A stretch of DNA of 32,000 nt from Halomicrobium mukohataei DSM 12286 (GTDB taxonomy: Archaea; Halobacteriota; Halobacteria; Halobacteriales; Haloarculaceae): positions 2,910,001 to 2,942,000 of the forward strand of contig NC_013202.1 of assembly GCF_000023965.1 (NCBI RefSeq), in the 5' to 3' direction. The notes below the pieces were generated by a model. It worked only from the letters and a program-made list of their open reading frames with translations. It searched no databases and was not told where the DNA came from. The translations under genes were made by a program, and so were the position numbers. Below, one piece after another: positions 6,373 through 32,000 of the stretch (positions within the stretch are counted from its first letter, which is position 1; each line of letters begins with the position of its first letter).

Positions 6373-6460
6373 CGGCCGGCGTCGAGGGTGTCGCGACGGA
6401 TGGAGTGTCGACGGTCGTCCCGAGGTGACGACCGGCTGGGCTCGTCGGCCGAACAGAAGG

Positions 6461-6467
6461 TACTTTT
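6461..6467 (+). promoter_or_regulatory. TATA-like element (TACTTTT) for the GT2-fusion gene
   Basis: A/T-rich heptamer 25-31 nt upstream of ATG 6492. Confidence 0.35.
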
Positions 6468-6491
6468 CGGTCGCTCGCGCACGGTGACACA

Positions 6492-8333: not shown

Positions 8334-8590
8334 TACGTACCAACTGTTGGCCAGACCCTATTTGAACGGGTGCGTCAAACTCTCTCAAACACCACGCTCG
8401 CACCGTTCACACCGGTTTCGACTTCCGAGATTCGATAGATTTAAATGAGTTTCGAAGGCACTGTGTTGGTACCAATCGAGCGTCCGGGATCGTCGATGAC
8501 GGACCGGAATCGTCGCCGTTCGTCGCCTGGCATGGGACGACACCAGTCGTTCTCGGCACCGATACCCCGGATAGCGCCCGCATTCGTACA

Positions 8591-9574: not shown

Positions 9575-9661
9575 CCGGTCCCTCGTTTCCGTCCCCGGAG
9601 CGCGGGCCACCGATCCGTCGCCGGCGCTGGCGTAATCAACCCTGATAACTGAGAGGTCACG

Positions 9662-9668
9662 TTTAATT
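9662..9668 (+). promoter_or_regulatory. TATA box (TTTAATT) for the transducer gene
   Basis: A/T heptamer 24-30 nt upstream of ATG 9692. Confidence 0.45.
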
Positions 9669-9691
9669 CGGTCCCAGCCGCTGGTACCGCT

Positions 9692-10585
9692 ATGGATCAG
9701 GAACCAACGACCGATGGAGGCGTCGAGGCCTCGTCTGGTGGGTCTCTCGCTGGTGGCGAACTCGGGAGCGCGATCGACGAGTTGCTCCGGGCCTCCGAGG
9801 GCGTCTCGGAGAGTTCACAGCAGATCAGCGACCTCGCCAACGAGCAGTCCGAGAACATGCGAGAGGTCGCCAGCGAGGTGTCGAATCTCTCGGCGACCGT
9901 CGAGGAGGTCGCCTCCAGTGCCAGCCAGGTCAAACAGGTCAGCGACGACGCCCGCGATCTCGCCGCCGACGGCCGCGAGGCAGCCGACGACGCGATCGGA
10001 GCGATGGAGGCCGTCGACGAGGCAAACACCGACGTGTCGGCCGACGTCAAGCAACTGCGCGACCGCATCGACGAGATCGACGAGATCGTCGAGGTGATCA
10101 ACGACATCGCAGACCAGACGAACATGCTGGCCCTGAACGCCTCCATCGAGGCCGCGCGAGCGGGCGAGGCCGGCGAGGGATTCGCCGTCGTCGCCAACGA
10201 GGTCAAGAGCCTCGCCGAGGAGTCCCAGCAGAACGCGGCCGAGATCGAAGAGCTGGTCTCGAACATCAAGTCCGACACCGAAGAGACCGTCCAGAGCATC
10301 GACCACGCCAACGAGCAGGTCGAGGAGGGACTCACGCAGGTCGAGACGGCCGTCGACATCCTCCGGAAGATCGACGAGGCCGTCGAGGAGGCCGCGATGG
10401 GTGCCGAAGAGGTCGCCTCCGCGACGGACGAACAGGCCGCATCGACCGAGGAGGTCGCGAGCATGGTCGACACGACCGCCGAGAGCGCCGAGGAGGTCGC
10501 CACGGAGATCGAGCAGATCGCCGCGGCCAACGAGCAACAGGCCGCGAAGGTCAACGAGCTGCAGGACATGATCGAGCGCCGGTAG
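9692..10585 (+). CDS. soluble methyl-accepting chemotaxis (Htr-type) protein consisting only of the signalling domain
   Basis: Highly conserved MCP hairpin tip [40 protein letters not shown]. The whole 297 aa is an acidic coiled coil. No TM, HAMP or sensor domain is visible. Confidence 0.85.
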
Positions 10586-10631
10586 GGCGCGAACCAGAAG
10601 ACACGAGGGGATTCGTTTCGACTGCCGTTCT

Positions 10632-11690
10632 ATGGAGACGACTCACCGTGTAGTGACGGGTGACGCCCGCGAGTTGGCGCTGCCCGACGACAGCGTCGAC
10701 CTGGTCGTGACCTCGCCACCGTACCCGATGATCGAGATGTGGGACGACATCTTCGCAGCACTCGACCCCGCCGTCGAGGACGCGCTGGCGGACGAAGACG
10801 GCGAGCGCGCCTTCCAGTTGATGCACGACGTGCTCGATACCGTCTGGGCCGAAGTGGTCAGGGTGCTCCGGCCGGGCGGGATCGCCTGCATCAACGTCGG
10901 CGACGCCACCCGCTCGATCGGCGACGGCTTTCGGTCGTTCTCGAACCACGCGGAGATCACGACCCGCCTGACCGACCGAGGTCTCCGGGCGCTGCCCGAC
11001 ATCCTCTGGCGCAAGCCCTCGAACCGCGCGACGAAGTTCATGGGTTCGGGGATGCTCCCGCCCAACGCCTACCCGACGCTGGAACACGAACACGTCCTCG
11101 TCTTTCGCAACGGGCAACGGCGCACCTTCCCGCCCGGCGACGACGACCGCTACGAGAGCGCGTACTTCTGGGAGGAGCGAAACGTCTGGTTCTCGGACCT
11201 GTGGGAGCTGACGGGCGAGCGCCAGGCCGTCGAGGACGGTCTGCGCGAGCGGTCCGGTGCCTTCCCGCTGGAGCTACCCTACCGACTCGTCTCGATGTTC
11301 TCGACGTACGGCGACACCGTCCTCGATCCCTTCCTCGGTACCGGGACGACGACGATGGCCGCGCTCGTCGCCGGCCGCGACTCCGTGGGGTACGATCGGG
11401 ACGACGACCTCCTCGCTGCGCTCGACGACCGCGTCGAGGACGCCCCCGAGCGCTCACGGGAGATCGCCGAGCGGCGACTCGCCGACCACCGCGAGTGGGT
11501 CCAGCAGCGACGAGCCGAAGGGAACGAGCCGGGCTACGAAGCCGAGCACTACGACACCGCCGTCAACACCAAACAGGAACGCCGGATTCGCTTCTACGGC
11601 GTCGACGGCGTCGAACGGACAGACGAGGGGTATCGCGCGACCCACTCGCCGATCGAAGGGTGCCCCGACGGCGAGAGCGAACAGGCTTAG
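10632..11690 (+). CDS. zim: site-specific DNA methyltransferase, beta class (N4-cytosine/N6-adenine); Zim (CTAG m4C methylase)-like, orphan
   Basis: Catalytic motif IV VVTSPPYP lies N-terminal to SAM motif I DPFLGTGTT, which is the beta-class order. SPPY favours m4C. No nuclease gene is adjacent. CTAG is strongly depleted in the window. The symbol rests on my recollection of the haloarchaeal zim gene and its neighbourhood, so it is tentative. Confidence 0.8.
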   Translation: METTHRVVTGDARELALPDDSVDLVVTSPPYPMIEMWDDIFAALDPAVEDALADEDGERAFQLMHDVLDTVWAEVVRVLRPGGIACINVGDATRSIGDGFRSFSNHAEITTRLTDRGLRALPDILWRKPSNRATKFMGSGMLPPNAYPTLEHEHVLVFRNGQRRTFPPGDDDRYESAYFWEERNVWFSDLWELTGERQAVEDGLRERSGAFPLELPYRLVSMFSTYGDTVLDPFLGTGTTTMAALVAGRDSVGYDRDDDLLAALDDRVEDAPERSREIAERRLADHREWVQQRRAEGNEPGYEAEHYDTAVNTKQERRIRFYGVDGVERTDEGYRATHSPIEGCPDGESEQA

Positions 11691-11713
11691 TGCCCGTCGG
11701 AGCAAGCGACGGC

Positions 11714-12394
11714 ATGGACTTCGATTCGTTTACGCTGCTGGCAGCGGGCGCGGACCTCTCGGACGAGCCGGCCGCTCGCGAGGACGCCGACGGGATCGAG
11801 TTGCGGATGGACTTCGCGGACGACGCTCTGTCGATGCTCGACGACTACGAGGGTGACCTGCCCGTCCTGGTGACCAACCGCGTCGAGTGGGAGGGCGGCG
11901 AGGCCCCGGACGACGCCGCCCGACTCGATGCCCTCGAAACGGCCGTCGAGCACGACGCCGTCACGGCCGTCGACGTGGAGCTTGCTGCCCTCGAAGGCGA
12001 GGGAGCCTGCGACGCCGCTCGCGTCGTCTCGCACGCTCGCGACCACGGTGCAAGCGTCGTCGTCTCGACCCACGACTTCGAGGCGACGCCCGACGAAGCC
12101 GCCCTCGTCGACCGACTGGAGCGGGCCTGCGAGTACGGCGACGTGGGCAAGATCGCGACGACGGCACGGGACCGCGGTGACGTACTGGCGCTGCTCGAAG
12201 CGACCCACCGGCTGACCGAGACCGGTGAGACCGTTGCGACGATGGCGATGGGCGAGGCCGGCCGTCACTCGCGTCCCGTCGCGCCGCTGTACGGCTCTCG
12301 GATCGGCTACGCGCCCGTCGATCCCGCCGACGCCACGGCACCCGGACAGTACGATCTGGCGACGCTACGACGGCTGGTCGACCAGCTGTCCTGA
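11714..12394 (+). CDS. aroD: 3-dehydroquinate dehydratase, type I
   Basis: Internal ATG of track ORF 10739..12394. Motifs DGIELRMDF, VVVSTHDFEATP, GKIATTA (Schiff-base Lys region) and MAMGEAGRHSR. 226 aa. Begins 23 nt after the methylase stop. Confidence 0.9.
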   Translation: MDFDSFTLLAAGADLSDEPAAREDADGIELRMDFADDALSMLDDYEGDLPVLVTNRVEWEGGEAPDDAARLDALETAVEHDAVTAVDVELAALEGEGACDAARVVSHARDHGASVVVSTHDFEATPDEAALVDRLERACEYGDVGKIATTARDRGDVLALLEATHRLTETGETVATMAMGEAGRHSRPVAPLYGSRIGYAPVDPADATAPGQYDLATLRRLVDQLS

Positions 12395-12441
12395 CCTCGG
12401 AGAGCGACCGGCAACCACGTGAAGACAAGTCGGTGCGCAAG

Positions 12442-12447
12442 ATTAAC
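12442..12447 (+). promoter_or_regulatory. TATA-like element (ATTAAC)
   Basis: 29-34 nt upstream of ATG 12476. Supports the internal ATG rather than the GTG at 12419. Confidence 0.35.
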
Positions 12448-12475
12448 AACGATTGGCCCGGGAGTGGGGGGTATC

Positions 12476-12877
12476 ATGGTCGATGCAGACCAGAAACGGC
12501 CCCTGCTCGCCGCCGCCCTGGCGTTTCTCTCGCCCGGTCTCGGTCACCTCTACCTCCGTGAGTGGATCCGTGCGCTGCTGTGGTTCACCCTCGCGATGCT
12601 CGGCGTCAGTATCCTCGCGCCGGAGGCCACGCTTCCGGCGGCGACGACGCCGGAGGCGATCTGGACGGCGTCGGTCGAGATGACCCGCGCCCTCTCCTGG
12701 CAGGCCCGCGGCGCGTTGCTGGCCGTCTCGCTGTTGAGCGTGCTCGACGCCTACCGGATCGCGACCGAGATCAACGCCGCGGCCGCCATCGAGGAGGGCC
12801 AACAGTGCCCCTACTGCGGGCGGGAACGCGACGAGGACCTCGACTTCTGTCACTGGTGTACGGCCGAACTGGAGTGA
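12476..12877 (+). CDS. membrane protein with a C-terminal zinc ribbon (133 aa)
   Basis: TM segments LLAAALAFLSPGLGHLYL, LLWFTLAMLGVSILA and ALLAVSLLSVL. C-terminal CPYCG...CHWC. Confidence 0.7.
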   Translation: MVDADQKRPLLAAALAFLSPGLGHLYLREWIRALLWFTLAMLGVSILAPEATLPAATTPEAIWTASVEMTRALSWQARGALLAVSLLSVLDAYRIATEINAAAAIEEGQQCPYCGRERDEDLDFCHWCTAELE

Positions 12878-12894
12878 CGAGTGCCCACGGGGCG

Positions 12895-14061
12895 CTACTT
12901 CTCGATGATCGACTCTTCGACGGCCTCGCCGAAGTGACGGGCCTTGTCGTCGGTGTACAACAGGAGTTCGTCGCCGGGCTCGATGTCGGTGATCGCGGTC
13001 CGGCCCTCGGCGGTGTGCATCTTGATCGTCTCGGCGTTCTGGATCAGCGTCTCGATGCGGTCGCCGTCCTCAGTCTCTGCCTGGACGCGGAACATCGGCC
13101 GCTTCTCGATCTTGGCGCGGCCGACGATGGCCTCGCGGGTGTTGCCGTCGGTGTCGACGACCTGGACCTCGTCGCCGCTCTGGAGTTCCGAGAGGTACTT
13201 GGTCCCGCCGTCGGGCGTGCGGACGTAGGCGTGGACCGCACCGGCGTTGACCCGGAAGGGACGCGAGGCCACGTAGGGCGACTCGGCGGTCTCGGCGTGG
13301 ACGAAAAAGAGCCCGCGAGCCATCGAGCCGATCAGCATTCCCTCGTCCTCGGCCATCAGCGAGCCCGTATCGATGCAGACGCGGTCCGCCGACCCGGTCT
13401 GTTCGATGTCGGTGACCTCGGCCCAGGACAGCGAGAGCTGTTCGCGGCCGGCCTCGTCGCGGACTTCGACGGTGCGGCGGATCTCGTCGGGATCGTCCGT
13501 GTCGAGCAGGACGCCGTCGGCACCCAGTTCGAGCGTCTCGTAGGCGGTCTTTGCGTCCTCGGCAGTCTGGACGCCGGTGATCAGCTCCGTCTCGTCGCCG
13601 ACGCGGGCGATGAGGTTCTCCAGGGGAATGATCTGCCAGTCGTCGCCGATGACGATGGTGAAGGCCGCCTCCTCGGCGACGGCCTCGGCGAAGCCCTCGT
13701 ACTCCTTGGACCGGATGCGGACGTAGCCACCCTGTGGGGCCTCGCCGTCCTGGCGGAGCGCAGAGAGGTCGGCAGAGCCAGAGAAGTCAGAGGGCAGGTC
13801 AACGGTGCCGTCGCCCTCGCCGTCCTTGCCCACGACGTGGGCGTCGGGTTCGGCTTCCTCGCCCTCGGCGTCCATGACGGTGACGTCGCCACCGGCGAAG
13901 GCGGCGACGTTGACTTCACCGAGGTCCCGGACGCGGGCCACGTCGTGTTCGTCGACGAGCACCCAGTCGACGCCGGCTTCGAGGCCGGCGGTGATTCGGC
14001 GCTTTCGGGTCTCCCAGTCGCCGACCTCGCTGTCGGCCTTGAGCCACACGCTTCGTGTCAT
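12895..14061 (-). CDS. aroB': 3-dehydroquinate synthase II (archaeal type)
   Basis: 388 aa. The N-terminus VWLKAD...W..RKRRITAGLEAGVDWVLV and the overall length match my memory of archaeal DHQ synthase II. Sits next to ADH synthase. Confidence 0.85.
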   Translation of the reverse strand: MTRSVWLKADSEVGDWETRKRRITAGLEAGVDWVLVDEHDVARVRDLGEVNVAAFAGGDVTVMDAEGEEAEPDAHVVGKDGEGDGTVDLPSDFSGSADLSALRQDGEAPQGGYVRIRSKEYEGFAEAVAEEAAFTIVIGDDWQIIPLENLIARVGDETELITGVQTAEDAKTAYETLELGADGVLLDTDDPDEIRRTVEVRDEAGREQLSLSWAEVTDIEQTGSADRVCIDTGSLMAEDEGMLIGSMARGLFFVHAETAESPYVASRPFRVNAGAVHAYVRTPDGGTKYLSELQSGDEVQVVDTDGNTREAIVGRAKIEKRPMFRVQAETEDGDRIETLIQNAETIKMHTAEGRTAITDIEPGDELLLYTDDKARHFGEAVEESIIEK

Positions 14062-14192
14062 TGTCCCACCTCTCGAATCGGTCCCGCTTGAACGTGGCGA
14101 ATGCGGGCAATCGGCCCGGATAGAAGGATCACCGTCGCGCGTGACTGTCTCGTCGGTCAGACGTCGCCAGCGGTGGCCGCGTTCGGCGTTCG

Positions 14193-14999
14193 CTACGCCT
14201 CGACGGCGAGACCGGCCGCACGGAGCGCGTCGGCCGCCTCGCTGTCCTCGTGGACGACGCTGGCGACGGCGCGAGCGATCTTCTCGGGTTCCTCGTGCTG
14301 GAAGATCGAGCGCCCCATCGAGACGCCGGCCGCCCCGGCGTCCATCGCCCCGCGGACGATGTCGAGCGTCTCCTCGTCGGTGCCCTTCGAGCCGCCCGCG
14401 ATCAGGACGGGCAGTGCGGTCGACTCGACGACGCGTTCGAACGTCTCTGGCGTGCCGCTGTAGGCGGTCTTGACGAGATCGGCGTCGAGTTCCTCGGCCA
14501 GCCGGACCGCGTGGCCGAGGTCCTCGGCGAACAGCTCGGGGTCCTCGTCGCGAACGTCGTGGCCGCGAGCGTAGGCCATCGCCAGCACCGGCAGCCCGTA
14601 CTCGCGGGCCGCGCTGGTGACCTCGGAGAGCTGTGAGATCTGCTCCGGTTCGTGCTCGCTGCCGACGTTGATGTGAAAGGAGACGGCGTCGGCCCCGGCC
14701 CGGATGGCGTCCTCGACGGTGCCGGTCGGTCGTTTGTCGCTCTCGTCTGGCCCGATCGAAGTCGAGCCGTTGAGGTGGACGACGTAGCCCGCGTCGTTCG
14801 TGTTCTCGTGGACGCGGTCGGCGATCCCGCGCTGGGTGAGGACGGCGTCCGCGCCGCCCGTCGTGACCGCGTCGATCGTCGATTCGATGTCGACGAGGCC
14901 GTCGACGGCCCCGAGTGTGATACCGTGGTCCATGGGGACGATGACATGTCGCCCCCCTGTCCCGATCCGTGCCAGTCGTGCTGCTTTCCCTGCGCTCAT
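14193..14999 (-). CDS. aroA': 2-amino-3,7-dideoxy-D-threo-hept-6-ulosonate (ADH) synthase, DhnA-type class I aldolase family
   Basis: VIVPMDHGITLG and DLVKTAYSG (Schiff-base Lys region). 268 aa. Positioned between trpA and DHQ synthase II. Confidence 0.85.
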   Translation of the reverse strand: MSAGKAARLARIGTGGRHVIVPMDHGITLGAVDGLVDIESTIDAVTTGGADAVLTQRGIADRVHENTNDAGYVVHLNGSTSIGPDESDKRPTGTVEDAIRAGADAVSFHINVGSEHEPEQISQLSEVTSAAREYGLPVLAMAYARGHDVRDEDPELFAEDLGHAVRLAEELDADLVKTAYSGTPETFERVVESTALPVLIAGGSKGTDEETLDIVRGAMDAGAAGVSMGRSIFQHEEPEKIARAVASVVHEDSEAADALRAAGLAVEA

Positions 15000-15025
15000 G
15001 TTGTGCGAACGTGTGGCAAGTACGA

Positions 15026-15856
15026 TTATGTTCCTTCCGGTTGCGGCCGATTCTGTGCGCCCCGCAGCGCCCCCTCCTTCAGTTCGCGGGCCTTCTGTTC
15101 GAGGCGGGCCGCGACCTCGTCGGCGGGGTCGCCATTCTCGTGGCCCTCAGCGACGATGTCGACGAGCGCGGAGCCGACGATGATGCCGTCGGCACCGGCA
15201 GAGACGATCCGCTCGGCGTGGTCGCCGTTCTTGATGCCGAAGCCGACGGCCTTTGGCACGTCCCACTCCGCAATCCGGGCGAGGCTCTCCTCGGTCGCGT
15301 CGTCCACGTCGTCTTTCGCGCCGGTGACGCCCAGCCGCGCCTGCACGTAGACGTAGCCCGAGGTCTGATCCATCATCGACGCGAGCCGGTCGCCCTTCGT
15401 GGTCGGCGCGACGATGAAGATCAGATCGAGGCCGTACTCGTCACAGGCCGCCCGGAGCGGCCCGGCCTCTTCGGCGGGCAGGTCCGGCACGACGAACCCC
15501 TCGATACCGACCTCGGCGGCCTTCTCGACGAAGGGTTCTGGCCCTTGTCCGGAGCCATACTGGTAGATGAGGTTGTAGTAGGTCATACAGACCAGCGGCA
15601 CGTCCACGTCCAACTCTTCGACGAACTCGAAGAACCGATCCGGACTCATTCCGGCGTCCAGCGAGCGGACGACGGCCTCCTGGATCGTCGACCCCTCGGC
15701 GATGGGTTCGGAGAACGGAAGCCCGAGTTCGATCACGTCCGCACCCCCGCGAGCGAGCGCTTCGACGTACTCGATCGAGGCGTCGTAGTCCGGATCGCCC
15801 GCGGCGAGATACGGGACGAAGGCGGGTTCGTCGGCGAAGGCCCGTTCCAGTCCCAT
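15026..15856 (-). CDS. trpA: tryptophan synthase alpha chain
   Basis: [18 protein letters not shown] and GFGI...A.......[11 protein letters not shown] motifs. The start abuts the trpB stop (TAG then ATG). Confidence 0.95.
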
Positions 15857-17152
15857 CTAGATCCCGCCCCCGATCTCGTTGAAGATCGACATGTCCGGCG
15901 CGATGTCCAGATCGCGCTTCTGGGTCTCTTCGATGACGGTTTCGAGGTCCTTGTCCCCCCGGCCAGAGACGTTGACGATCACGGTGTCGCCCAGTTCGTC
16001 GTGGTGCTCATCTCGCGGCTCCGCCGCTCGATCGTCCGTGGCGGGTCCCGCCACGCGCTCCAGATAGCCGAACGCGTGGGCCGTCTCCAGCGCCGGGATG
16101 ATCCCCTCGTCCTGGGAGAGCCGGTGGAACGCTTCAAGTGCGGTGTCGTCGTCGACGTTGACCGGCGTCACGCGCCCCTCGTCGACGAGGTGGGCCAGTT
16201 CCGGACCGACGCCCGCGTAGTCGAGCCCCGCGGAGACGGAGTGTGACTCCATGATCTGGCCGTCAGAGTCCTGAAGGAGCTTCGTGCGCGCTCCGTGGAG
16301 TACCCCCTCGTCGCCGGTCGACAGCGACGCCGAGTTGGGCGCGACGCCTTCCTCCTCGTCGACCGACAGCGAGGAGCCGCCGGCCTCGACGGCGTAGAGG
16401 TCCACGTCGTCGTCCGGAACGAAGTGATGGAACGCGCCCATCGTGTTCGAGCCGCCACCCGCACAGGCCAGGACGGCGTCCGGGAGGCCGCCGGTCTGCT
16501 CCTGGATCTGCTCGCGGGCCTCCTCGCTGATGACCGACTGGAAGTCCCGGACCATCGCCGGGAACGGAGCCGGGCCGACGATCGACCCGATGACGTAGTG
16601 GGTCGTCTCGACGGTGGTCGCCCAGTCCCGCATCGTCTCGCTGATCGCCTCTTTGAGCGTCCCGCGGCCGGTCGTCACCGGATTCACCTCGGCGTCGTTG
16701 ATCCGCATCCGGAAGACGTTGGGCCGCTGGCGGGCGATGTCGGTCTCGCCCATGTAGATCTCGCAGGGCATGTCGAGGTGGGCCGCGGCCATCGCCGTCG
16801 CCGTGCCGTGTTGCCCGGCACCGGTCTCCGCGATGATACGCTCCTTGCCCATGTACTTCGCCAGGAGGACCTGCCCGAGCGCGTTGTTGAGCTTGTGAGC
16901 CCCGCCGTGGAGCAGGTCCTCTCGCTTGAGGTACACCTCGGTGTCGTAGCGCGCCGAGAGCTGGTCGGCCCGCTGTAAGGGCAGGGGTCGGCCGCCGAAG
17001 TCCGCCAGCCGCCGACGGAACTCGTCCATGAAGCCGTCCTCGTTGTCGATCACGTACCGCTCGTAGGCGTCGGTCAGCTCCTCGATGGCCGGCATCAACG
17101 CCTCGGGTACGAACTGTCCGCCGTAGTCGCCGAATTTGGATTCGCTACTCAT
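15857..17152 (-). CDS. trpB: tryptophan synthase beta chain
   Basis: PLP-lysine motif [13 protein letters not shown], plus [13 protein letters not shown] and GGGSN. Confidence 0.95.
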
Positions 17153-19786: not shown

Positions 19787-20191
19787 CCGGTCGCTTTCGA
19801 GGACCGCTCACTTCGTTCGCGCCCCTCGCTCCCTACGGACTCAATCTCTGACGATCTCGCGGGAAGAGAGGAAGACGGTCCTGCGAGACTCACCCTGTTC
19901 GTCTCGCTGGCTCCCAGGTTTGTCGCTGCTCGCGTGTCGCTTCGCTCCCGCTCGCTTTCGAGGACCGCTCACTTCGTTCGCGCCCCTCGCCCCCTACGGA
20001 CTCAATCTCTGACGATCTCGCGGGAAGAGAGGAAGACAGTCCTGCGAGACTCACTCTGTTCGTCTCGCTGGCTCTCAGGTTTGTCGCTGCTCGCGTGTCG
20101 CTTCGCTCCCGCTCGCTTTCGAGGACCGCTCACTTCGTTCGCGCCCCTCGCCCCCTACGGACTCAATCTCTGACGATCTCGTGGGAAGAGA
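19787..20191. repeat. 161-bp tandem repeat array (about 2.5 copies) that includes the last 37 nt of aspS
   Basis: Full units at 19833-19993 and 19994-20154 differ at 3 positions. A partial unit at 19787-19832 matches the unit tail. The array ends in the genuine aspS 3' end (20155-20191, 1 mismatch). Each unit starts with CTACGGACTCAATCTCTGACGATCTCGCGGGAAGAGA, which is the reverse complement of ...[10 protein letters not shown]-stop. Confidence 0.92.
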
Positions 20192-21453
20192 ACGGCTTCG
20201 CGGATGTTGCCGAGACCGAGCATCGTCATGATGAGGCGTTCGCCGCCCAGGCCCCAGCCGGCGTGTGGGGGCATCCCGTACTTGAACATCTTCGTGTAGT
20301 AGTCGAAGGCTTCTGGATCGAGGCCCTGCTGTTCGAACCCGTCGACGAGGTGGTCGTAGCGGTGTTCACGCTGGCCGCCAGAGACCAGCTCCATCTCGGG
20401 GTGCATCATGTCGAAGCCGGTTGAGACCTCGTCGTCCTTGTCCATGATGTAGAACGGTTTGATCTCGCTGGGCCAGTCGGTGATGAAGTAGTGCTCGCCC
20501 ACGTCCTGGCCGAGCGCGTGTTCGCCCTCGGTCGGCAGGTCGTCGCCCCAGACGAGCGGCTCGTCGAGCTCGCCCGTGGCGTTGATGCGCTCGATGGCCT
20601 CCTCGTAGGTCAGGCGCGGGAAGTCGCCTTCGGGTGCCTCGAACTCGTCGGCCAGGTCCAGCGCAACGAGTTCGTCCTGACAGTTCTCTTCGACGGCCTC
20701 GTAAGCGGCCTTGACGACGGCCTCGCAGGCGTCCATCGCTTCGGTGTGATCGGCGAACGCCGACTCGAAGTCGATCGAGGTCGCCTCGTTGAGGTGTCGG
20801 GGCGTGTTGTGTTCCTCGGCGCGGAAGATCGGCCCGATCTCGAAGACCCGCTCCAGTCCGGAGCCGACCATCAGCTGCTTGAACAGCTGGGGGCTCTGGT
20901 TCATGAACGCTTCCTGGCCGAAGTATGTGATCGGGAACAGCTCGGTGCCGCCCTCGGTGCCGGTGGCGACGATCTTGGGCGTGTTGATCTCCGTGCAGCC
21001 GAGTTCGCGGAACTGCTCGCGCACCGCGCGCAGCACTTCCGCGCGGATCTCGAAGATCGCCTTGACCTCGTCCTTGCGGAGGTCCAGCGTGCGGTTGTCC
21101 AGTCGGGTCGACAGCTCGGCGTCGACCTTGCCGGAGGGGTCGAGTGGCAGTTCGGGGTCGGCCTCGCTGATCACGTCGACCGACGCGGGCGTGACCTCGA
21201 CGCCGGTCGGGGCGCGGGGCTCTTCTTCCACGTCGCCCGTCACGGAGATGACGGACTCGCGGTGGACGTTCAGACCCGTCTCCACGAGATCGTCGTCCAT
21301 CTCCTCGACCTCGAACTTGACCTGAATCTTGCCGGTCGTGTCTCGGAGGATGAGGAATGCGATGCCACCGAGGTCGCGCACCTCGTGGACCCAGCCGGCG
21401 ACGGTGACCGTGTCACCGGGCTCGGCGTCTGCCGTGTACGTTCGATCGTCCAT
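20155..21453 (-). CDS. aspS: aspartate--tRNA ligase (archaeal type)
   Basis: OB-fold N-terminus ([19 protein letters not shown]), class II motif 2 [14 protein letters not shown], motif 3 [11 protein letters not shown], and the C-terminus [12 protein letters not shown]. Confidence 0.95.
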
Positions 21454-21488: not shown

Positions 21489-22580
21489 TTATTCTCTCTC
21501 GTCGATGGCGTCCCGTGACAGCCCGCGGATCGTCTCGGGAGCCACGCCACAGCGATCCCAGGCCGGCAGTCGACGGTCCTCGCCGGGGTCGGCCACCCCA
21601 CGGACGTACTCCCGAACCTGCTCGCGTTCGCTGGCGGCGTCGTAGGTCAGTCCGTTGAACCGCGCGTCGGCGGCGTACTGGTCGACGAGCGCGTCGGCAG
21701 CGGTCGTGTACGCGTCCCGGAGGCGGTCGTACTCGACGGCGACGCCCTGGTCGTCGAGCACCCGGAAGAGCGCGCCACCGACCGCCTCGCACATATCGCC
21801 CAGTCCCGACGGGCCGCCGACCGAGCGGTGGTCGTGCTCGTGGGTCCCCAGGTCGACCTGTGCGCTGCCGGCGAAGCCCGCCGCGTCGTAGGCGTCCCCG
21901 AGCGTGCCGATCTCCAGCCCCCAGCCGGGCTGGGCACGGAGCGATCTGGCGACCGCGCTCGTCGCGGCGAACTCGCCGGCCAGCGCGTAGCGAAACGACA
22001 GGAGGTAGTCGATCACCGGATGATCGACCGTCTCGTCGAGGGCGCGCAAGAGCGGGCGGACGAACAGGCGAAACAGCCGCCCGTAGAGCCGCCCGTCCTC
22101 GACGCGGGCGTAGTAGCCCTTGGCGAAGCTGTGGTCTCCGGCCAGGGGTGCGAGCAGTTTCGGGACCTGCTCGGCCCCGTAGCTCGTGGCGTCGGCGTCG
22201 TGTACCACCACGTAGTCGTGGCGCGCGGCCACGCCCAGCGCGAGCCACACGTCTCGGCCCTTGCCGGCCTCGGCGACGAGGTCACGCTCGCGCAGGTGCT
22301 CCTCGACGCGGGGCGCGTTGCACCACAGCACCTCGGCGTCGAAGTCGAAGCCGTCGATCCACTCGGTCACCGCGGCCACCTCGCCCGGGCCGGCCCGCAA
22401 CGGGACGTACACCTGCTCGGGGTCGACCGACGCCAGCGTCGAGAAGACGTGCTCGGCGGCGAGGCTGGCGTGCTCGCGCTCGGTCATGGGGACGACGACC
22501 GCGGCCCGATCGGTCGGCGCGGCGGGGTTCGTGCCGTCGTAATCGTGTAGCGTAGCGATCCGTTCCTGGACGTACTCCAT
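21489..22580 (-). CDS. GT-A glycosyltransferase, glucosyl-/mannosyl-3-phosphoglycerate synthase-like (363 aa)
   Basis: Internal ATG (MEYVQERIATL...) of track ORF 21489..23645. VVVPMTERE, DxD in VVVHDADATSY, and GWGLEIGTLGDA, which resembles the GpgS G(Y/W)G(V/L)EIG motif from memory. Confidence 0.65.
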   Translation of the reverse strand: MEYVQERIATLHDYDGTNPAAPTDRAAVVVPMTEREHASLAAEHVFSTLASVDPEQVYVPLRAGPGEVAAVTEWIDGFDFDAEVLWCNAPRVEEHLRERDLVAEAGKGRDVWLALGVAARHDYVVVHDADATSYGAEQVPKLLAPLAGDHSFAKGYYARVEDGRLYGRLFRLFVRPLLRALDETVDHPVIDYLLSFRYALAGEFAATSAVARSLRAQPGWGLEIGTLGDAYDAAGFAGSAQVDLGTHEHDHRSVGGPSGLGDMCEAVGGALFRVLDDQGVAVEYDRLRDAYTTAADALVDQYAADARFNGLTYDAASEREQVREYVRGVADPGEDRRLPAWDRCGVAPETIRGLSRDAIDERE

Positions 22581-22605
22581 CACTCCCCACTTCGGTTCCG
22601 GCCTC

Positions 22606-27286: not shown

Positions 27287-27721
27287 TCACCCCTCGCGCT
27301 GGGCGATGAACTGGTGGAGCAGGGCGTACTCCGCGACGGTCATCGGAAACCGGCCCTCGACCTTCTGCTGAATCTCCTTCGGTTCGAGCTGGCCGTCGAT
27401 ACCCGACGCGAGCGTTTCCACGTCGAGGACCGCCGTCGTCATCCCCATCAGGAGGATGTCCCGCGCGTCCGCGGCGATCGTGTCGGCGTGAGGACGGTCC
27501 TCGTCGAGCGCCAGGATCGCCGCGGCCTCGGTGAGTTCGATATCCGGGGAGGCACCGTCGAGCAACGCCGTGATCCGGTCTCGGTTCAGCGGCGTCTCGT
27601 CGACGGCCCGGTCGACGCCGACGGATTCGACGGTCTCGGACAGCCGCGTCTCGTAGGCCCGCCGGAGAGTCTCTGGTGACTGCTCGCCCGCGTCCTCGAA
27701 TTCGCCTCTGATCATACACAC
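27287..27721 (-). CDS. hypothetical acidic cytoplasmic protein (144 aa from GTG 27721, or 142 aa from ATG 27715)
   Basis: ORF with good G/C third-position bias and no TM segment (MIRGEFEDAGEQSPETLRRAYETRL...). No family securely recognised. Confidence 0.7.
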   Translation of the reverse strand: MCMIRGEFEDAGEQSPETLRRAYETRLSETVESVGVDRAVDETPLNRDRITALLDGASPDIELTEAAAILALDEDRPHADTIAADARDILLMGMTTAVLDVETLASGIDGQLEPKEIQQKVEGRFPMTVAEYALLHQFIAQREG

Positions 27722-27748: not shown

Positions 27749-30700
27749 TCACTCCGGCCCCGGATCGGGCCACCCCTCCGACTCCTCGATCGCGACGCCG
27801 TTGGTGTCGCCGACGCCGGTCTTGCCCGGCGGCACGACGACGAGGACCGTCGCCGTGGCCTCGAAGTCGACGCGGGTTGACCGGCCGATCCGCTCGGGAG
27901 ACCCGTCGTCGTCGACGTCGAGGCTGACGTTCTCGCCGTCCCTGGCGTAGACGAACTCGCCGCCGGGCGTCGTCGGCCGCCCCTGGGAGACGCGCACGCC
28001 GAAGCGGGCGTACTCGCCACGGACCGTGACGTGCCAGACGTTCGTCGTGGCGTACCACGAGCCGGGCACGGGTGCCAGCGGGAGTCCGGACGGCATCGCC
28101 TCGAACGTGTCGTTCACCACCGCGCCGTAGCCGCGCTTCGTGGCCCGTTCCGCACCGGCGGCAGCGGCCTCCCGAGCCAGCTCCCGCGCGACCGTCTGCG
28201 TGCGCGATCGGCTCGCGTCGACGGCGTCGGTGTCCGGTCGCCCGCCCGGCTCCCGTAACGCCGCGCGACGCGTGGCGTTCAGTCGAATGGCGAGCCGGTC
28301 GCGTGCAGCCACCGAGAGGTCGGTCCGCCGGCCGGCGAGAGCGACGAGTCGACGGCTGACCGAGCCGTTCGCCAGCGCCAGGGCCCGATCGTGGGTCGTC
28401 TGCCACGGCGCGAGCGCGTCTCGAAGCATCGCCTCGCGCTCGCTGGCACTGCCGGCGACGGCCCGTCGGGACAGCACCGACCGCTGGCCGTCGATCACGT
28501 GCTCGTTCGCCGACGCGACTTCTCGGCGGAGGGCGTCGCGTTCGCGGGTCAGCGCCGAGACGTTCTCGGCGTGGCGTTCGGGTCGGCGCGCGTCCGCCCG
28601 TCGAACCGCCTCGCCGTCCACAGCAGCGGCGTTCGCCTCGGCGAGGGTCGCGTTGGTCGCGTTCAACGTCCGGGCCGCCGTGTCGAGTCTGACCCCCGAT
28701 CGATCGCCGAACAGACCGTCGACCAGCGAGTCCGAGACGGTCTGGTGGGGTACGGTAAAGACGTTGACGTTGCGCGCGACCAGCGGACGAGAGCTGTTCT
28801 CGATCGCCGGGTCGTCGTCGTGGCTGAGCGAGGCCTGCGTGAGGTAGGCCGGTGCGCCGTCGGCCGTCAGCGCGACCGGCCCGCCGACACCGTCCAGCCG
28901 CGGCTGGCGGTCCGACGGTGGTCGCCCGCGAGCGTCGAGCCCCTCGCGCAGCGTCTCGATCGACGTACCGGCCTCGTCGAGCCGATCGCCGAACGCGTCG
29001 GCCCTGCCACGCCGGTCGTCTGCCCGCGCACGGAGGCGGGCCTGTACGCGATCGAGGTACGCGACCCGGACGGCGATCCGCGCCTTGGTCGCCGCGCCGT
29101 CGTAGCTGGACGGTGCGTCGATCAGCCGCGTCCGCTCTCGCTCGACGGCCCGTGCGAGCGCTGCCGGCGGGTTCGATTCGTACGACCCGACTCGTCCCTG
29201 CCGCACCTCGACGGCGACGGACCGGACCCGTTCTCGGACCCCCATCAGATCGCGATACGCCCACTCGGACGCGTTCGCGGGTACCTCTAGCTCGATCGTG
29301 TGAACGTCGGAGTTCGGCCCGCTGTGGACCGCGTATTCGAGGGCCGCGGACCGGCCGCCCTGGCTGTCGATCAGGCGCTCTCTGGCGCGTTCGCGAGCGT
29401 CGGCGAGGTTCGGTCCCTCCAGGGGGCCGGCACCGCGCTGGTGGGCCCGTCGGATCGGTCGAACGGGAGCCGGCGAGGTGCGGTCGTGACGACCGACGAC
29501 CGCGAGGGTGACGGTCTGTCGACTCGTGCCCGTCCTGTCGGTGGTCCTCCGCTGGACCTCGACGCTCCCGTTTGGCCCCGCGACCTGGCGCTCCCAGACC
29601 CCCACCGCTCGCTCCGTGACGACCGTCTCTCGCCCGTAGGTCTCGAACTCGTGCCAGCCGTCGGGGATCGGCGGCGGCGCGACGGACACGTTTCGGTGGC
29701 GGATCGATCGCTCACGGCGCTTGTCGACGCGCGTCCAGTTCGAGCCGGCGGGGCGCGGTGCCGACACGCCGACGTGGCGATCGCCCTCGACGCGGCCGAC
29801 AGTCCGGACCTCGACGCTGTAGGCGTCCCGTATCGTGCTGTCGATGGCACCGTCGTCGAGCACGTCGACGAACGCTCTGTCTGCCGTCTCGTTGACCGCG
29901 ACCTCGCGCCGCTCGTCGGGGCTCGACCGGCGCGGTGGCTCCAGTCCCTCGATGTCGCTCGCCGCTGGCTTCGTCGGTCCGCTCAGAACGGCGTCGGTCA
30001 CGCGCGAGTCGGTCCCTGTGGCGACGGTGAGATCCCGTGCCGCCGTCCGTGCCGCCGCGACCGCGAGCGTGCGACGGCCCCGTGGATCGGCGTGGCCGAT
30101 CGTCTCGCGCTGGAGGTCCAGCAGTGCCTCGTTGGTGACGACGCCCACGTGCTGGTTCGAGACGACGTTGCTGATCGGCACCTCGCCGTACTGGAGGTAG
30201 CCTCGCGACCACGCCAGCGCGTACAGCTGAGTCGTCAGTCGCTGGCTCAATCCTCGCTCCGTCACGCCGGCGTCGAGTCGCCGCTGGTAGGTGCTGACTC
30301 GATCGTGGGCCGCGAGCACCGGCGTCACGACGGTGACAGTCGGAGAGATCGTCGTCCGGGAGCGCACCTGCCCGCCACGGTGGGTACGGACCGTCACGTT
30401 CTCGACGGTCACCCGGATCGCGGTGCCGTCGTCGTCTGCCCGCTGGATTGTCACGCGGTCGATGGCGGCGCGGCGCTTGGCCCGCGTCTCCGTCGAGGGC
30501 AGCGAGACCGAGCCGGTGACCTCGCCACGACGGACCGCGACCCGAGAGAGGCGGTCGCGGGCCCGCAGGTAGATCCGGAGCCGGAGCGCGTCGCGAAACG
30601 CCGTCTCTTCGTCGAGAAGGCGACCGGCGGCGGTGTCTGCCGGATCGACGACGGGGTCCGCTGCGGCCGCCCGGCTGGCGGTCGTCACGGCCTCGCGCAG

Positions 30701-30856
30701 TTCCGTCTGTGCGGTCGCAGTCGTCCGTTCAGTGACCACCTCGGTCTCGCTGTCGGACGGAAGCGATCCCGGATCGATCGTCGTCGCCAGCGTCGCGCTG
30801 CTGACGAGCAGGAGGACGCCGATCAGTGCGAACGGCACGCGGCCGCGATCGTCCAT
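27749..30856 (-). CDS. large (1035 aa) N-terminally anchored, sequon-rich hypothetical protein
   Basis: ATG 30856 overlaps the upstream stop (TGATG); the alternative GTG at 30868 adds 4 aa. The N-terminus MDDRGRVPFALIGVLLLVSSATLATT is a short charged stretch followed by one hydrophobic helix. By my count 14 of about 26 Asn lie in N-x-S/T sequons. No enzymatic motif recognised. Strong G/C third-position bias, unlike the overlapping Arg/Gly/Pro-rich shadow ORFs. Confidence 0.75.
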   Translation of the reverse strand: MDDRGRVPFALIGVLLLVSSATLATTIDPGSLPSDSETEVVTERTTATAQTELREAVTTASRAAAADPVVDPADTAAGRLLDEETAFRDALRLRIYLRARDRLSRVAVRRGEVTGSVSLPSTETRAKRRAAIDRVTIQRADDDGTAIRVTVENVTVRTHRGGQVRSRTTISPTVTVVTPVLAAHDRVSTYQRRLDAGVTERGLSQRLTTQLYALAWSRGYLQYGEVPISNVVSNQHVGVVTNEALLDLQRETIGHADPRGRRTLAVAAARTAARDLTVATGTDSRVTDAVLSGPTKPAASDIEGLEPPRRSSPDERREVAVNETADRAFVDVLDDGAIDSTIRDAYSVEVRTVGRVEGDRHVGVSAPRPAGSNWTRVDKRRERSIRHRNVSVAPPPIPDGWHEFETYGRETVVTERAVGVWERQVAGPNGSVEVQRRTTDRTGTSRQTVTLAVVGRHDRTSPAPVRPIRRAHQRGAGPLEGPNLADARERARERLIDSQGGRSAALEYAVHSGPNSDVHTIELEVPANASEWAYRDLMGVRERVRSVAVEVRQGRVGSYESNPPAALARAVERERTRLIDAPSSYDGAATKARIAVRVAYLDRVQARLRARADDRRGRADAFGDRLDEAGTSIETLREGLDARGRPPSDRQPRLDGVGGPVALTADGAPAYLTQASLSHDDDPAIENSSRPLVARNVNVFTVPHQTVSDSLVDGLFGDRSGVRLDTAARTLNATNATLAEANAAAVDGEAVRRADARRPERHAENVSALTRERDALRREVASANEHVIDGQRSVLSRRAVAGSASEREAMLRDALAPWQTTHDRALALANGSVSRRLVALAGRRTDLSVAARDRLAIRLNATRRAALREPGGRPDTDAVDASRSRTQTVARELAREAAAAGAERATKRGYGAVVNDTFEAMPSGLPLAPVPGSWYATTNVWHVTVRGEYARFGVRVSQGRPTTPGGEFVYARDGENVSLDVDDDGSPERIGRSTRVDFEATATVLVVVPPGKTGVGDTNGVAIEESEGWPDPGPE

Positions 30857-31734
30857 CACGGCGACCACGTCCTGACGACGATTCGTACCTCGCCCGTCGA
30901 GACGGCGCGGGCCGTGGCCGCCGGTGTCTCGAACCGGTCGCGCATGTCGGCGGCGAACCGGTCGGCCAGCGCAGCCGTGAGCCGGGCGTTCGTCGCTTCA
31001 ACGGAGCCGTTCTCCAGGTCCAGAGCCGGTGCGTCGGTGAGCCTGGCGACGCGGCGGTAGCGGTGGGCCGCCAGCGTGTCGGCCGGCGCGTCCCCACGGA
31101 GCGCGACGCGGCTCTCGGCGGGCGAGAAGAACCCCTCGACGACCGCCGCCGCGACCACGCGCGCAACGCCGTCCGTGCCGTCGGTCCGGGCAGCCTCGCG
31201 TGCGCGTTCGTTCGCTGGCTCGATGCCGCTGTCGACGGTGAGTCGAGCCGCACGCACGTCGGCCCTCGCGGGCGGCGTCGGTCCGGCGTGGATGCGACCG
31301 CCCAGGGGCGCACCGTCGTAGGGTTCCCAGACGGCCGTGACGCCGACGGCGGTCGCGCGACGGTGGACGGCAGCGCGGGTCTCGTTGCGAACCGCTCGCT
31401 CGAATCCGCCGCCGGCAGGGGCGATTCGCTCGCCGTCGAGCGTCGCGGCGGTCCGCGTGGCTGCCGCGAGGAGCCCGGCGACCGTCCCGTGTGCCGTCCG
31501 GTCGAAGTCGGCGCTGTGGCCGTAGCTGACTCCGTCGCTGTGGTTGTTTCGCGGCGTCAGTGCGTAGTCGACGCCGACGGTGGTGGTCGCCAGCGAGGTC
31601 GCCGTCTCGTCGGCGTGGTCGTCCCCCGAGGGCGGCGCGTCGAGACCACCTGTCCCGGCGACGAGCGTCCCGACGGCACCCCCGAGCAGGAGGAGGAACA
31701 GCGTCGTATCGACGACGGTACTGATCGCTCTCAT
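30856..31734 (-). CDS. hypothetical N-terminally anchored protein (292 aa)
   Basis: Internal ATG 31734 of track ORF 30856..31848, overlapping the upstream stop (ATGA). The N-terminus MRAISTVVDTTLFLLLLGGAVGTLVAG is pilin-like or a signal anchor. 3 sequons. Confidence 0.7.
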   Translation of the reverse strand: MRAISTVVDTTLFLLLLGGAVGTLVAGTGGLDAPPSGDDHADETATSLATTTVGVDYALTPRNNHSDGVSYGHSADFDRTAHGTVAGLLAAATRTAATLDGERIAPAGGGFERAVRNETRAAVHRRATAVGVTAVWEPYDGAPLGGRIHAGPTPPARADVRAARLTVDSGIEPANERAREAARTDGTDGVARVVAAAVVEGFFSPAESRVALRGDAPADTLAAHRYRRVARLTDAPALDLENGSVEATNARLTAALADRFAADMRDRFETPAATARAVSTGEVRIVVRTWSP

Positions 31735-32000
31735 CGCCACACCGCCACCCGGAGACGGGCCGCGTCGACGTGGGCCGGCCTCGTCCGGACGCTCACCCGC
31801 TCGCTCGCGGTCCCAGCGTCGTCTGGGGCGACCGGTCCCGCCTGCCACTGCCGGCCGTCGGCGGTCACGCTCACGTTCGTGTGATAGCCCGACGGACCCG
31901 CGTCGACGGCGTCGGAGACTCGTCGGGGCTCGACGACGCCAGCGGGCGCGAGGTGATCGTCGACCGCGGCAAGTGTCGTCTCGGGCAGTTCTCGCTCGCG
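31731..32000 (-). CDS. 3' end (89 codons) of a further hypothetical gene in the same operon (partial; start lies outside the window)
   Basis: My own translation of the minus strand from 32000: RERELPETTLAAVDDHLAPAGVVEPRRVSDAVDAGPSGYHTNVSVTADGRQWQAGPVAPDDAGTASERVSVRTRPAHVDAARLRVAVWR-stop. It is an open frame with mostly G/C-ending codons, and the stop TGA at 31731-31733 overlaps the next ATG. Not in the ORF track because no start lies in the window. Confidence 0.45.
   Translation of the reverse strand, partial: RERELPETTLAAVDDHLAPAGVVEPRRVSDAVDAGPSGYHTNVSVTADGRQWQAGPVAPDDAGTASERVSVRTRPAHVDAARLRVAVWR

Follow-up and report, generated by a model that had tools for sequence, protein, structure and literature searches.

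Haloarchaea carry several PilB/PilC paralogues, which to our knowledge are understood only for the adhesion pili (PilA/PilB3C3) and the archaellum. Here we describe a further PilB/PilC locus, that of Halomicrobium mukohataei DSM 12286, whose DUF7285, DUF7284 and DUF7286 genes stand at the end of a 32,000-nucleotide stretch of the chromosome (NC_013202.1, positions 2,910,001 to 2,942,000; "the window"), DUF7286 being a giant protein of 1035 amino acids (aa). The closest described counterpart is the halobacterial type IV pili-like system defined as subclade 4F by Makarova, Koonin and Albers in 2016 (PMC4858521). That system has an ATPase, often with a Cys-rich N-terminal extension, a TadC protein and predicted pilins of the euryarchaeal type, together with a unique cytoplasmic coiled-coil protein, a frequent "S-layer-like" protein and a neighbour of the FtsZ family (PMC4858521). 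In the Haloarcula hispanica locus of their Table S4, the coiled-coil protein arCOG07564 and arCOG10216 are listed with the ATPase arCOG01818, the TadC protein arCOG01814 with nine transmembrane (TM) segments, the predicted pilins arCOG04673, arCOG05166 and arCOG06291 (879 bp), and the surface protein arCOG02945 (3003 bp); arCOG04674 and then an epimerase end the locus. The same source gives arCOG05166 and arCOG06291 as "predicted pilin", positive in FlaFind, and arCOG02945 as "SIGNAL", not FlaFind-positive, and places arCOG10216 in the FlaG/FlaF/PilA family (COG03430).

The same block was described by Brown and Duggin in 2023 (PMC9856176) as the pilB2/C2 regulon, which in Haloferacales and Halobacteriales lies specifically next to cetZ2, with arCOG04674 and the epimerase travelling with cetZ2 whether or not pilus genes are present. 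A 2026 preprint by Sivabalasarma and Albers lists it under subsystem 4F, noting CetZ2 co-localization and an "adhesin-like protein homolog (arCOG02945)", and both surveys state that the biological role of the regulon is unknown. The PilB2 of Haloferax volcanii has been called clade 4C (PMC6491452), and the ATPase arCOG01818 is listed as "non_specific", but the accessory arCOGs of the locus are all labelled 4F (PMC4858521, Table S4), and because of this gene content we kept the 4F assignment. From synteny and locus-tag arithmetic (cetZ2 is HVO_0745, and a small conserved gene 13 positions on is HVO_0758), we infer that the H. volcanii counterparts are HVO_0746-0753. The haloarchaeal systems touched by experiment, PilB3C3 and PilB1C1 of H. 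volcanii and pil-1 and pil-2 of Halobacterium salinarum, belong to other clades.

The Halomicrobium locus is another orthologous instance of the 4F system, and we think it rather probable that it encodes a haloarchaea-specific type IV filament machine (4F, pilB2/C2) in which a minor-pilin complex is capped by DUF7286 as a large tip protein. An initial annotation, made from the letters of the window alone, had described three consecutive minus-strand genes joined by overlapping stop and start codons, and these reading frames and overlaps are indeed present:

31731..32000, minus strand: C-terminal 89 codons of the DUF7285 gene, whose start lies beyond the window (full protein about 129-132 aa)
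31731..31734, minus strand: ATGA overlap of the DUF7285 stop and the DUF7284 start; the two genes overlap or abut in 80% of 76 loci
30856..31734, minus strand: DUF7284 gene, 292 aa from the ATG at 31734
30854..30858, minus strand: TGATG overlap of the DUF7284 stop and the DUF7286 ATG; a 13-nt overlap if the GTG at 30868 is the start
27749..30856, minus strand: DUF7286 gene, 1035 aa when read from the ATG and 1039 aa when read from the in-frame GTG at 30868, an alternative start
27287..27721, minus strand: DUF5791 gene (arCOG04674, predicted helix-turn-helix protein), about 30 nt downstream of DUF7286; Pfam DUF5791, E 2.8e-50

The DUF7286 and DUF5791 genes of the window lie in the same frame, 30 nt apart. 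The first junction reads ...GCG ATG A... (wider context GCGATGAGA) and the second ...CCG TGA TGG... (wider context CCGTGATGGAC). Across 77 loci DUF7284 and DUF7286 are separated by a median of 8 nt (-13 nt if the earliest possible start is taken), and the other operon junctions are likewise overlaps or spacings of a few nucleotides, except for two gaps, a conserved one of about 34 nt ahead of DUF7283 and one after DUF7286. Translational coupling is therefore a trait of the whole operon family and not of this window alone. As to the co-translation and fixed stoichiometry that had been read from the overlaps, they support the former but fall short of showing the latter.

The flank beyond the window was read on the public contig CP045142.1 (assembly GCA_009217585.1). 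In the combined record of window and flank (locus L001), the window is the reverse complement of L001 from 9735 onward, and the full DUF7285 gene lies at 9606/9615-10004. Going upstream from DUF7285, the genes are:

Upstream, same strand: DUF7283, 154 aa
Upstream, same strand: PilC/TadC-like platform protein, 564 aa with nine hydrophobic segments, its gene overlapping the ATPase stop
Upstream, same strand: PilB/CpaF-type T2SSE ATPase, 617 aa; Pfam T2SSE, E 9.6e-17
Upstream, same strand: DUF7311, 151 aa with one N-terminal helix
Upstream, same strand: DUF7310, 194 aa, a coiled coil; Pfam, E 4e-31
Beyond DUF7310, divergently transcribed: tubulin/CetZ gene (Tubulin/CetZ_C; cetZ2)

The pilus or Tad-like motor genes suspected beyond the window are thus found directly upstream. 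The nearest solved structures to the ATPase are Archaeoglobus fulgidus GspE (afGspE; 8.8e-25), the Tad ATPase CpaF (1.6e-20) and the archaellum ATPase FlaI (2e-15), and its N-terminus, MRGWFSRSTPAPDCGCTVRRGRNDTGETLLVDATDCPDGGRLAESPAC, holds four Cys within the first 48 residues (Cys14, Cys16, Cys36 and Cys48). Homology of the platform protein is weak, the match to Pfam T2SSF being below threshold (E 0.0075; 16.7 bits against a cut-off of 25.2), while its topology and position fit PilC/TadC. No prepilin peptidase gene was found within the window and its 10-kb flanks.

To survey gene order, twelve Halomicrobium proteins were searched with tblastn against the best 80 loci, and presence was counted over 83 loci. 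The order DUF7310-DUF7311-PilB-PilC-DUF7283-DUF7285-DUF7284-DUF7286 is kept in nearly all loci where the contig is long enough, so that the neighbourhood conservation proposed as a check of the operon is seen in nearly all of the 80 related loci; the layout in a Haloferax genome is identical. DUF7283, DUF7285 and DUF7286 are present in 83/83 loci, PilC and DUF7284 in 82/83, PilB in 77/83 (the others being contig ends), DUF5791 in 73/83, DUF7310 in 66/83 and CetZ2 in 45/83, more where the contig allows. Downstream, DUF7286 is usually followed by DUF5791, an epimerase and a DHH protein. Membership of the three genes in one eight-gene operon is near certain. In Haladaptatus litoreus the hydrophobic helix of the DUF7283 orthologue (L018:8211-8693) is interrupted by an in-frame stop (MFDAPVDAWYV*LGV), and the gene may be a pseudogene; an in-frame stop has likewise been reported for Hbt. 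salinarum pilC2, which belongs to a different clade.

Compared with subclade 4F as seen in Har. hispanica, the genes, their order and their sizes are alike, as are the Cys-rich N-terminus of the ATPase and the adjacent cetZ2 gene, and we see no essential difference. The secretion ATPase with its Cys-rich extension, a nine-TM platform coupled to it, the coiled-coil protein and the CetZ-family neighbour are all in place, and class III pilin-like proteins are represented by DUF7285 and DUF7284 with their predicted leaders. By position, DUF7285 corresponds to arCOG05166, DUF7284 to arCOG06291 and DUF7311 to arCOG10216, and by position and size DUF7286 corresponds to arCOG02945, this mapping of arCOGs to Pfam resting on synteny and size. 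The earlier statement that such clusters are catalogued only as DUF families beside Tad-like genes, with no demonstrated function, agrees with Pfam and the literature. A literature search found the Pfam DUF names in no paper. The locus type, the gene families and the label of the giant as a surface protein have been in the literature since 2016, in addition to the Pfam DUFs, and this is not a new system. What is added here are family-wide sequon and charge signatures, two models without relatives in the PDB, a pattern of Arg against Asp/Glu and a DxDxDG loop, which are leads and not discoveries.

Arg-rich off-frame reading frames are common in high-GC DNA, and the DNA here has 72% G+C. Between 27001 and 32000 the G+C content is 0.71-0.74, against about 0.63-0.70 in the rest of the window, and the excess lies wholly at the second codon position (GC2 0.56-0.61 vs 0.38-0.51), because the proteins encoded there are rich in Arg, Ala and Gly. 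At the third codon position (GC3) the DUF7286 gene has 0.86, the same as the neighbouring aspartyl-tRNA synthetase (AspRS), aldo-keto reductase and major facilitator superfamily genes. The reading frame of DUF7286 is genuine: its GC3 and its conservation at the protein level exclude a wrong-frame artefact. Horizontal transfer as the cause of the raised G+C is excluded by the same figures, GC3 equalling that of the neighbours and only GC2 being up. A provirus or mobile-element origin is unsupported, as viral contigs hold no relative of DUF7286 and its GC3 resembles that of its neighbours.

The giant matches its Pfam family over the full profile (E = 0, 1093.7 bits, positions 1-1000 of 1000), as does DUF7284 (2e-91, 307.2 bits, 1-278 of 278), while DUF7285, cut by the window end, covers profile positions 24-112 of 112 (1.3e-24, 87.5 bits). 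All three lie above the Pfam cut-off of 27 bits; NCBIfam gave no model match for the four proteins searched. The description of the giant as domain-less stands in so far as no characterized domain is found in it, and falls in that each of the three products belongs to a Pfam DUF family. A DUF7286 relative is encoded in 289 species genomes, as counted in a scan with one genome for each GTDB species. The named matches are all from Halobacteria, save two metagenome-assembled contigs with evidently wrong bin labels. A profile search of 1.84 billion representatives gave 563 relatives, of which the 150 listed are all full-length, about 1000 aa, with no informative distant relative or domain shuffling among them. 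The giant is 98% identical to the one of Halomicrobium katesii, and the mean column identity of the family alignment is 46%. Longer family members carry no extra Pfam domain except for two DUF7286-DUF5791 fusions in the representative library (P0307 and P0366), in which DUF5791 is C-terminal, its Met is retained and the spacer resembles translated intergenic sequence. We rejected these as Rosetta-stone evidence, since each is a singleton on one metagenomic contig and probably reflects stop-codon loss or an assembly error.

The giant was first singled out for its sequons and its Arg content, and both traits proved to belong to the family. It has 14 N-x-S/T sequons among 26 Asn, against 3.68 expected from shuffling its own composition (sd 1.76), and none of 5000 shuffles reached 14. 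In a set of 45 diverse DUF7286 proteins, a median of 15 sequons compares with 3.9 expected, about 48% of the Asn belong to sequons, and four sequon columns are kept: N153 in 36/45, N322 in 32/45, N735 in 33/45 and N830 in 42/45. Sequons are also enriched about 3.3-fold in DUF7284, and no enrichment is seen in the cytoplasmic neighbours CetZ2, DUF7310, the epimerase and the DHH protein. The family-wide enrichment with conserved sites supports an extracellular, AglB-glycosylated location, and strengthens the earlier proposal, made from the one protein, that the giant is extracellular and N-glycosylated; from these sequence signatures we regard extracellular N-glycosylation of DUF7286 as likely.

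With 13.7% Arg, 0.6% Lys and an isoelectric point (pI) of 9.15, the giant is conspicuously basic, and so is its family (median pI 9.7; pI > 7 in 36/45 proteins); the neighbouring soluble proteins have pI 4.2-5.1. It is chiefly the first alpha/beta domain (+14) and the distal helical bundle (+8) that carry the positive charge. Such a pI is unusual for a haloarchaeal exoprotein. The absence of a Walker motif and of internal repeats was borne out by motif scans and self-BLAST, which found neither a Walker A or HExxH motif nor any Cys or internal repeat. The C-terminus, ...EESEGWPDPGPE, has neither a membrane anchor nor a PGF-CTERM, the only hydrophobic segment being N-terminal. The C-terminal beta-sandwich contains one further feature:

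27893..27919, minus strand: DxDxDGxxE loop, D-V-D-D-D-G-S-P-E, DUF7286 residues 980-988, candidate Ca2+ site

In this loop D980 and D984 are invariant, and D982, G985 and E988 are conserved at 90% or more; DxDxDG occurs once in DUF7286, and an invariant GVGD motif at residues 1014-1017 lies in the same domain. Together, the loop and the GVGD motif suggest a Ca2+ site.

The N-termini of the operon proteins bear on how they reach the outside. The 1035-aa and 292-aa proteins, with N-termini MRAISTVVDTTLFLLLLGGAVGTLVAG and MDDRGRVPFALIGVLLLVSSATLATT, each have a single hydrophobic segment there and none elsewhere, and the short charged peptide and the Arg-Ala or Arg-Gly noted ahead of it are present in both. 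DUF7285 is the most convincing class III signal candidate of the operon and, by its sequence, probably a small pilin-like protein: its orthologues begin M-S-R-S-S-x-R-[GA]-Q-[VT]-E-P followed by a hydrophobic helix (R-[GA] in 73/81 loci), with a short basic leader that ends in Gly or Ala (-1), then Gln (+1) and, at +3, an acidic residue that is conserved. DUF7284 begins R-[AG]-[IVT]-S-T-V-[VL]-D, with D9 invariant (36/36). We used the FlaFind-type pattern [ALIFQMVED][ILMVTAS]x3 at +1 to +4; the Halomicrobium R-A-I-S-T-V fits it, as do the DUF7284 proteins of 46/77 loci. DUF7284 may be a pilin-like or membrane-anchored accessory subunit. The sole similarity between DUF7285 and DUF7284 is a "W/V-x-x-G-P-x-P-P-x-x-A-D...V" patch at residues 94-114 of the former and 147-167 of the latter. 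Paralogy of the two is not shown, as their profile-profile match consists of this 21-column "GPxPP" patch alone, with an hhalign probability of 3%. DUF7283 (M-F-D-x-P-x-D) and DUF7311 (M-I-x-R-V-V-L) have no leader.

The N-terminus of the giant is the following:

30776..30847, minus strand: DUF7286 residues 4-27, motif R-G-R-V-P-F-A-L-x-G-V-L-L-L-V..S-A-T-L-A, a candidate signal anchor or pilin-like alpha1 helix

Its orthologues begin [DT]-R-[GA]-R-[VI]-P-F-A-L-x-G-V-L-L-L-V. Positions P8 and F9 are invariant, and R4 (93%), R6, V7, A10, L11, G13, V14, L16 and S20 are conserved at 90% or more; [KR][GA] precedes the helix in 74/81 loci. The sequences thus appear to make the class III reading, proposed at first for DUF7284 and DUF7286, sound for DUF7285 and most DUF7284 and leave it uncertain for DUF7286. 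A different route is that DUF7286 is an ordinary Sec-secreted soluble glycoprotein coating the cell or fibre, an "S-layer-like protein", with MDDRGR as n-region, VPFALIGVLLLV as h-region and SSATLA as c-region cut by signal peptidase I. The hydrophobic core of only about 13 residues and the small residues at -3 and -1 (A-T-L-A | T) would suit this, and bacterial PilY1, too, has a Sec signal. The corresponding arCOG02945 carries the "SIGNAL" label without being FlaFind-positive (PMC4858521). We nevertheless consider the Sec route improbable. Cleaved signal peptides are rarely conserved, and plain Sec cleavage is unlikely here because the first 20 residues, with two invariant positions and nine more at 90% or more, are far more conserved than the 46% mean of the alignment. 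Nor does a basic protein without a C-terminal anchor or PGF-CTERM resemble the haloarchaeal S-layer and S-layer-like glycoproteins, which are acidic and are held by a C-terminal TM segment or a PGF-CTERM anchor.

The charges at the helix edge form a pattern of their own. DUF7283 has D/E3 and D/E7 in 100%, DUF7285 E/D14 (the +3 position) in 93% and DUF7284 D9 in 100%, while DUF7286 has Arg6 (a basic residue in 96%) and a helix free of acidic residues. A conserved Arg in the giant where three small partners keep an acidic residue suggests a complementary arrangement. In bacterial type IV pili and type II secretion system (T2SS) pseudopili, Glu5 of each subunit neutralizes the N-terminus of its neighbour, and it is missing from the large tip subunit, GspK or PilX. 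The minor-pilin operon of Pseudomonas aeruginosa ends with the giant PilY1, which bears a regulatory Ca2+ site.

We modelled DUF7284 and DUF7286 with AlphaFold2 from family alignments and searched the folds with Foldseek. Both models are confident (predicted local distance difference test, pLDDT, 85.5 and predicted template modelling score, pTM, 0.82 for DUF7284; pLDDT 79.8 and pTM 0.60 for DUF7286), and neither predicted structure has a relative in the PDB. In the DUF7284 model a Gly/Pro linker of low confidence joins the N-terminal helix to a single compact alpha/beta domain. The DUF7286 model opens with a helix and its linker, followed by a long helix and by an alpha/beta domain that spans 86-280. 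After a disordered stretch come very long strands that form a sheet (347-456), then modules of helical and beta type, a helical bundle, also long (724-917), and the C-terminal beta-sandwich (937-1025). The first alpha/beta domain and the C-terminal sandwich are the most conserved segments (0.67), and the distal helical bundle, which holds 6/14 sequons, is the least (0.41). Against the PDB, DUF7284 gave only noise (best E 0.28, template modelling score at most 0.18). For DUF7286, local resemblances to beta-barrel outer-membrane proteins, SecB and TolC were discarded (E at least 0.039, template modelling score at most 0.06), as were levivirus maturation (pilus-attachment) proteins in BFVD (E 2e-3 to 8e-2), at a template modelling score of about 0.04 and a root-mean-square deviation above 50 Å. 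By sequence profile, DUF7286 found nothing in the PDB (best E 0.55, a phage fibre), nor did DUF7285, DUF7283 and DUF7311 (best E 0.12-0.35), the top match of DUF7311, with a nonsignificant E of 0.35, being to a type IV pilin in its N-terminal helix. Searches of profiles and structures assigned the giant to no well-characterized family.

In the capped type IV filament machine that we favour, the cytoplasmic ATPase and the nine-TM platform would pull the small proteins out of the membrane by their N-terminal helices, and these helices, from DUF7283, DUF7285 and DUF7284, would stack into a short fibre or priming complex. DUF7285, with its canonical short basic leader R-[GA]|Q-x-E-P, would probably be cut by the prepilin peptidase PibD, and DUF7284 probably in most lineages. 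DUF7286 would lie outside the membrane, N-glycosylated by AglB, as the large terminal or cap subunit, in the role that GspK, PilX or PilY1 has in bacteria. Its conserved C-terminal beta-sandwich and N-proximal domain might dock on the partners, and its variable, sequon-dense, positively charged modules might face outward as an adhesive or binding surface, the charge favouring attachment to polyanions, other cells or the haloarchaeal envelope, which is very acidic. On the cytoplasmic side, DUF7310 and CetZ2 would have a part in regulation or positioning. We infer the cap role, with moderate confidence and by analogy, because DUF7286 is encoded last after small pilin-like genes, has an Arg and no acidic residue at the helix edge and carries the conserved DxDxDG sandwich.

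The resemblance to the bacterial tip complexes (T2SS GspK-GspI-GspJ; FimU-PilVWX and PilY1 of type IVa pili) is one of working only. Small proteins with N-terminal helices stand in a row before a single giant. The largest member, unlike the rest, keeps no acidic residue close to the N-terminus of its helix, and the giant has a Ca-type DxDxDG loop in its C-terminal domain. Unlike in those complexes, the acidic residue lies at +3 or +6 and not at +5, no von Willebrand factor A (vWA) or beta-propeller domain is present, the giant showed no similarity in sequence or fold to GspK, PilX or PilY1 (Pfam, PDB profile and Foldseek), and archaeal cells have no outer membrane or secretin.

Further from tip complexes proper, a bolder version has the two previously unseen folds, with DUF7283 and DUF7285, forming a positive glycosylated cap, the Arg of DUF7286 pairing with the Asp/Glu of its partners, so that a Tad-like motor would become a CetZ2-positioned device for cell contact or fusion, or for the capture of polyanions or DNA; to this we give little credence.

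Several observations weigh against the filament machine with its cap. In DUF7286 the +1 residue is Arg in 96%, with Pro-Phe at +3/+4, and the strict class III pattern is found in 0/81 loci; some lineages lack the Gly/Ala altogether, as in V-T-V-R-V-P-F (V-T-x-R-V-P-F). About 25% of DUF7284 proteins, of the Haloferacales type, begin M-T-S-T-V-L-D and have no leader. The candidate of Makarova et al. for the major filament subunit, arCOG10216, lies at the position of DUF7311, which has no cleavable leader. The Foldseek and profile searches against the PDB gave no structural similarity to any pilin, GspK or PilY1. A literature search found no report of a filament, cleavage, glycan or phenotype for any operon member; HVO_0748-0753 appear in no paper text, and HVO_0747-0753 are not in the glycoproteomics or ArcPP supplements searched. 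Finally, the low-confidence Gly/Pro-rich linker follows the N-terminal helix in both models, in place of the continuous alpha1 helix of a pilin, and such a linker suits a membrane anchor as well as a pilin.

This last point leads to an alternative in which DUF7284, DUF7286 and perhaps DUF7283 and DUF7311 are permanent membrane-anchored basal parts, a stator, scaffold or conduit between membrane and S-layer like ArlF/ArlG, PilN/PilO or GspL/GspM, with the basic giant clamping the machine to acidic S-layer or lipids. A flexible linker right after the hydrophobic helix in both models, the noncanonical +1 Arg of DUF7286, the missing leaders of DUF7283, DUF7311 and the Haloferacales DUF7284, the basic pI throughout the family, the high conservation of the DUF7286 N-terminal helix, which suggests retention, and the placement of arCOG10216 in the FlaG/FlaF/PilA family are all in keeping with such anchored parts. 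It sits less well with the textbook class III-type leaders of DUF7285 and most DUF7284, with a row of small pilin-like genes before one giant, which mirrors operons of minor pilins and tip proteins, and with variable, heavily sequon-marked surfaces, which better fit an exposed adhesin; the Foldseek and profile searches, moreover, gave no similarity to ArlF/G or PilN/O. We judge the anchored scaffold unlikely, though worth keeping in view.

The lack of an obvious major pilin in the operon, the conserved adjacency of cetZ2, the positive charge, exceptional for a haloarchaeal exoprotein, and the role left as unknown in the two published surveys would also be compatible with a type IV filament machine repurposed for DNA uptake, protein secretion or mating contact, positioned by CetZ2, in which the Arg-rich giant binds nucleic acid or an acidic surface. 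We find this very improbable: a 2026 CetZ2 paper makes no mention of pili, cetZ2 expression is reported to fall under mating conditions, and Pfam, Foldseek and a motif scan of DUF7286 showed no nucleic-acid-binding fold or motif.

The capped filament machine that we prefer can also be set beside the better-known filament systems. Bacterial Tad/Flp systems (CpaF/TadA, TadB/TadC, Flp, TadE/F/G) share with it a clearly CpaF-related ATPase, a platform with a weak T2SSF match and a large pseudopilin-like last gene that recalls TadG. They differ in having TadB and TadC where this locus has a single platform gene; judged by the Pfam matches of the operon proteins, there is no Flp-type pilin with G|xxxxEY, no TadE, no secretin (RcpA) and no TadZ, and the accessory proteins are unrelated DUFs. 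The PilA1-6/PilB3C3 system of H. volcanii and pil-1 and pil-2 of Hbt. salinarum likewise use haloarchaeal PilB/PilC paralogues, and their pilins are PibD-processed and N-glycosylated; pil-2 is restricted to haloarchaea, co-transcribed and 8.5-fold induced in adherent cells. Unlike the present locus, these belong to clade 2 and subclade 4C with other pilin families, no counterpart of DUF7284 or DUF7286 is reported for them, and the Hbt. pilC2 is arCOG01810, not arCOG01814.

Elsewhere in the window, the region 385-17152 holds ordinary chromosomal genes, including an ABC ATPase, a radical S-adenosylmethionine (SAM)/HHH protein, a 3-dehydroquinate synthase II and a pyridoxal-phosphate enzyme, as well as the following:

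6492-8333: GT2-LPG_synthase_TM fusion
8591-9574: TFIIB
9692-10585: soluble protein with the signal domain of methyl-accepting chemotaxis proteins (MCP-signal domain)
10632-11690: N6/N4 DNA methylase

The open reading frames at 3338-4594 and 21489-22583 have no Pfam match. Two tandem repeats were seen. One, at 2280-2373, is a perfect 43-bp repeat of 2.2 copies (100% identity); the other, at 19787-20191, has 2.5 copies of a 161-bp unit at 97% identity, is noncoding, lies just 3' of the minus-strand AspRS gene (20155-21453) and contains no tRNA or Rfam family.

The 4F system has a wide distribution, its giant being encoded in the 289 GTDB species genomes, and is linked to the tubulin-like CetZ2 cytoskeleton. 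The locus offers handles for work on it in the likely PibD substrate DUF7285, the possible pairing of Arg with Asp/Glu at the helix edge, the candidate Ca2+ loop, the four conserved glycosylation sites and the probable H. volcanii counterparts. The two confident models without PDB relatives make DUF7284 and DUF7286 reasonable targets for structural biology.

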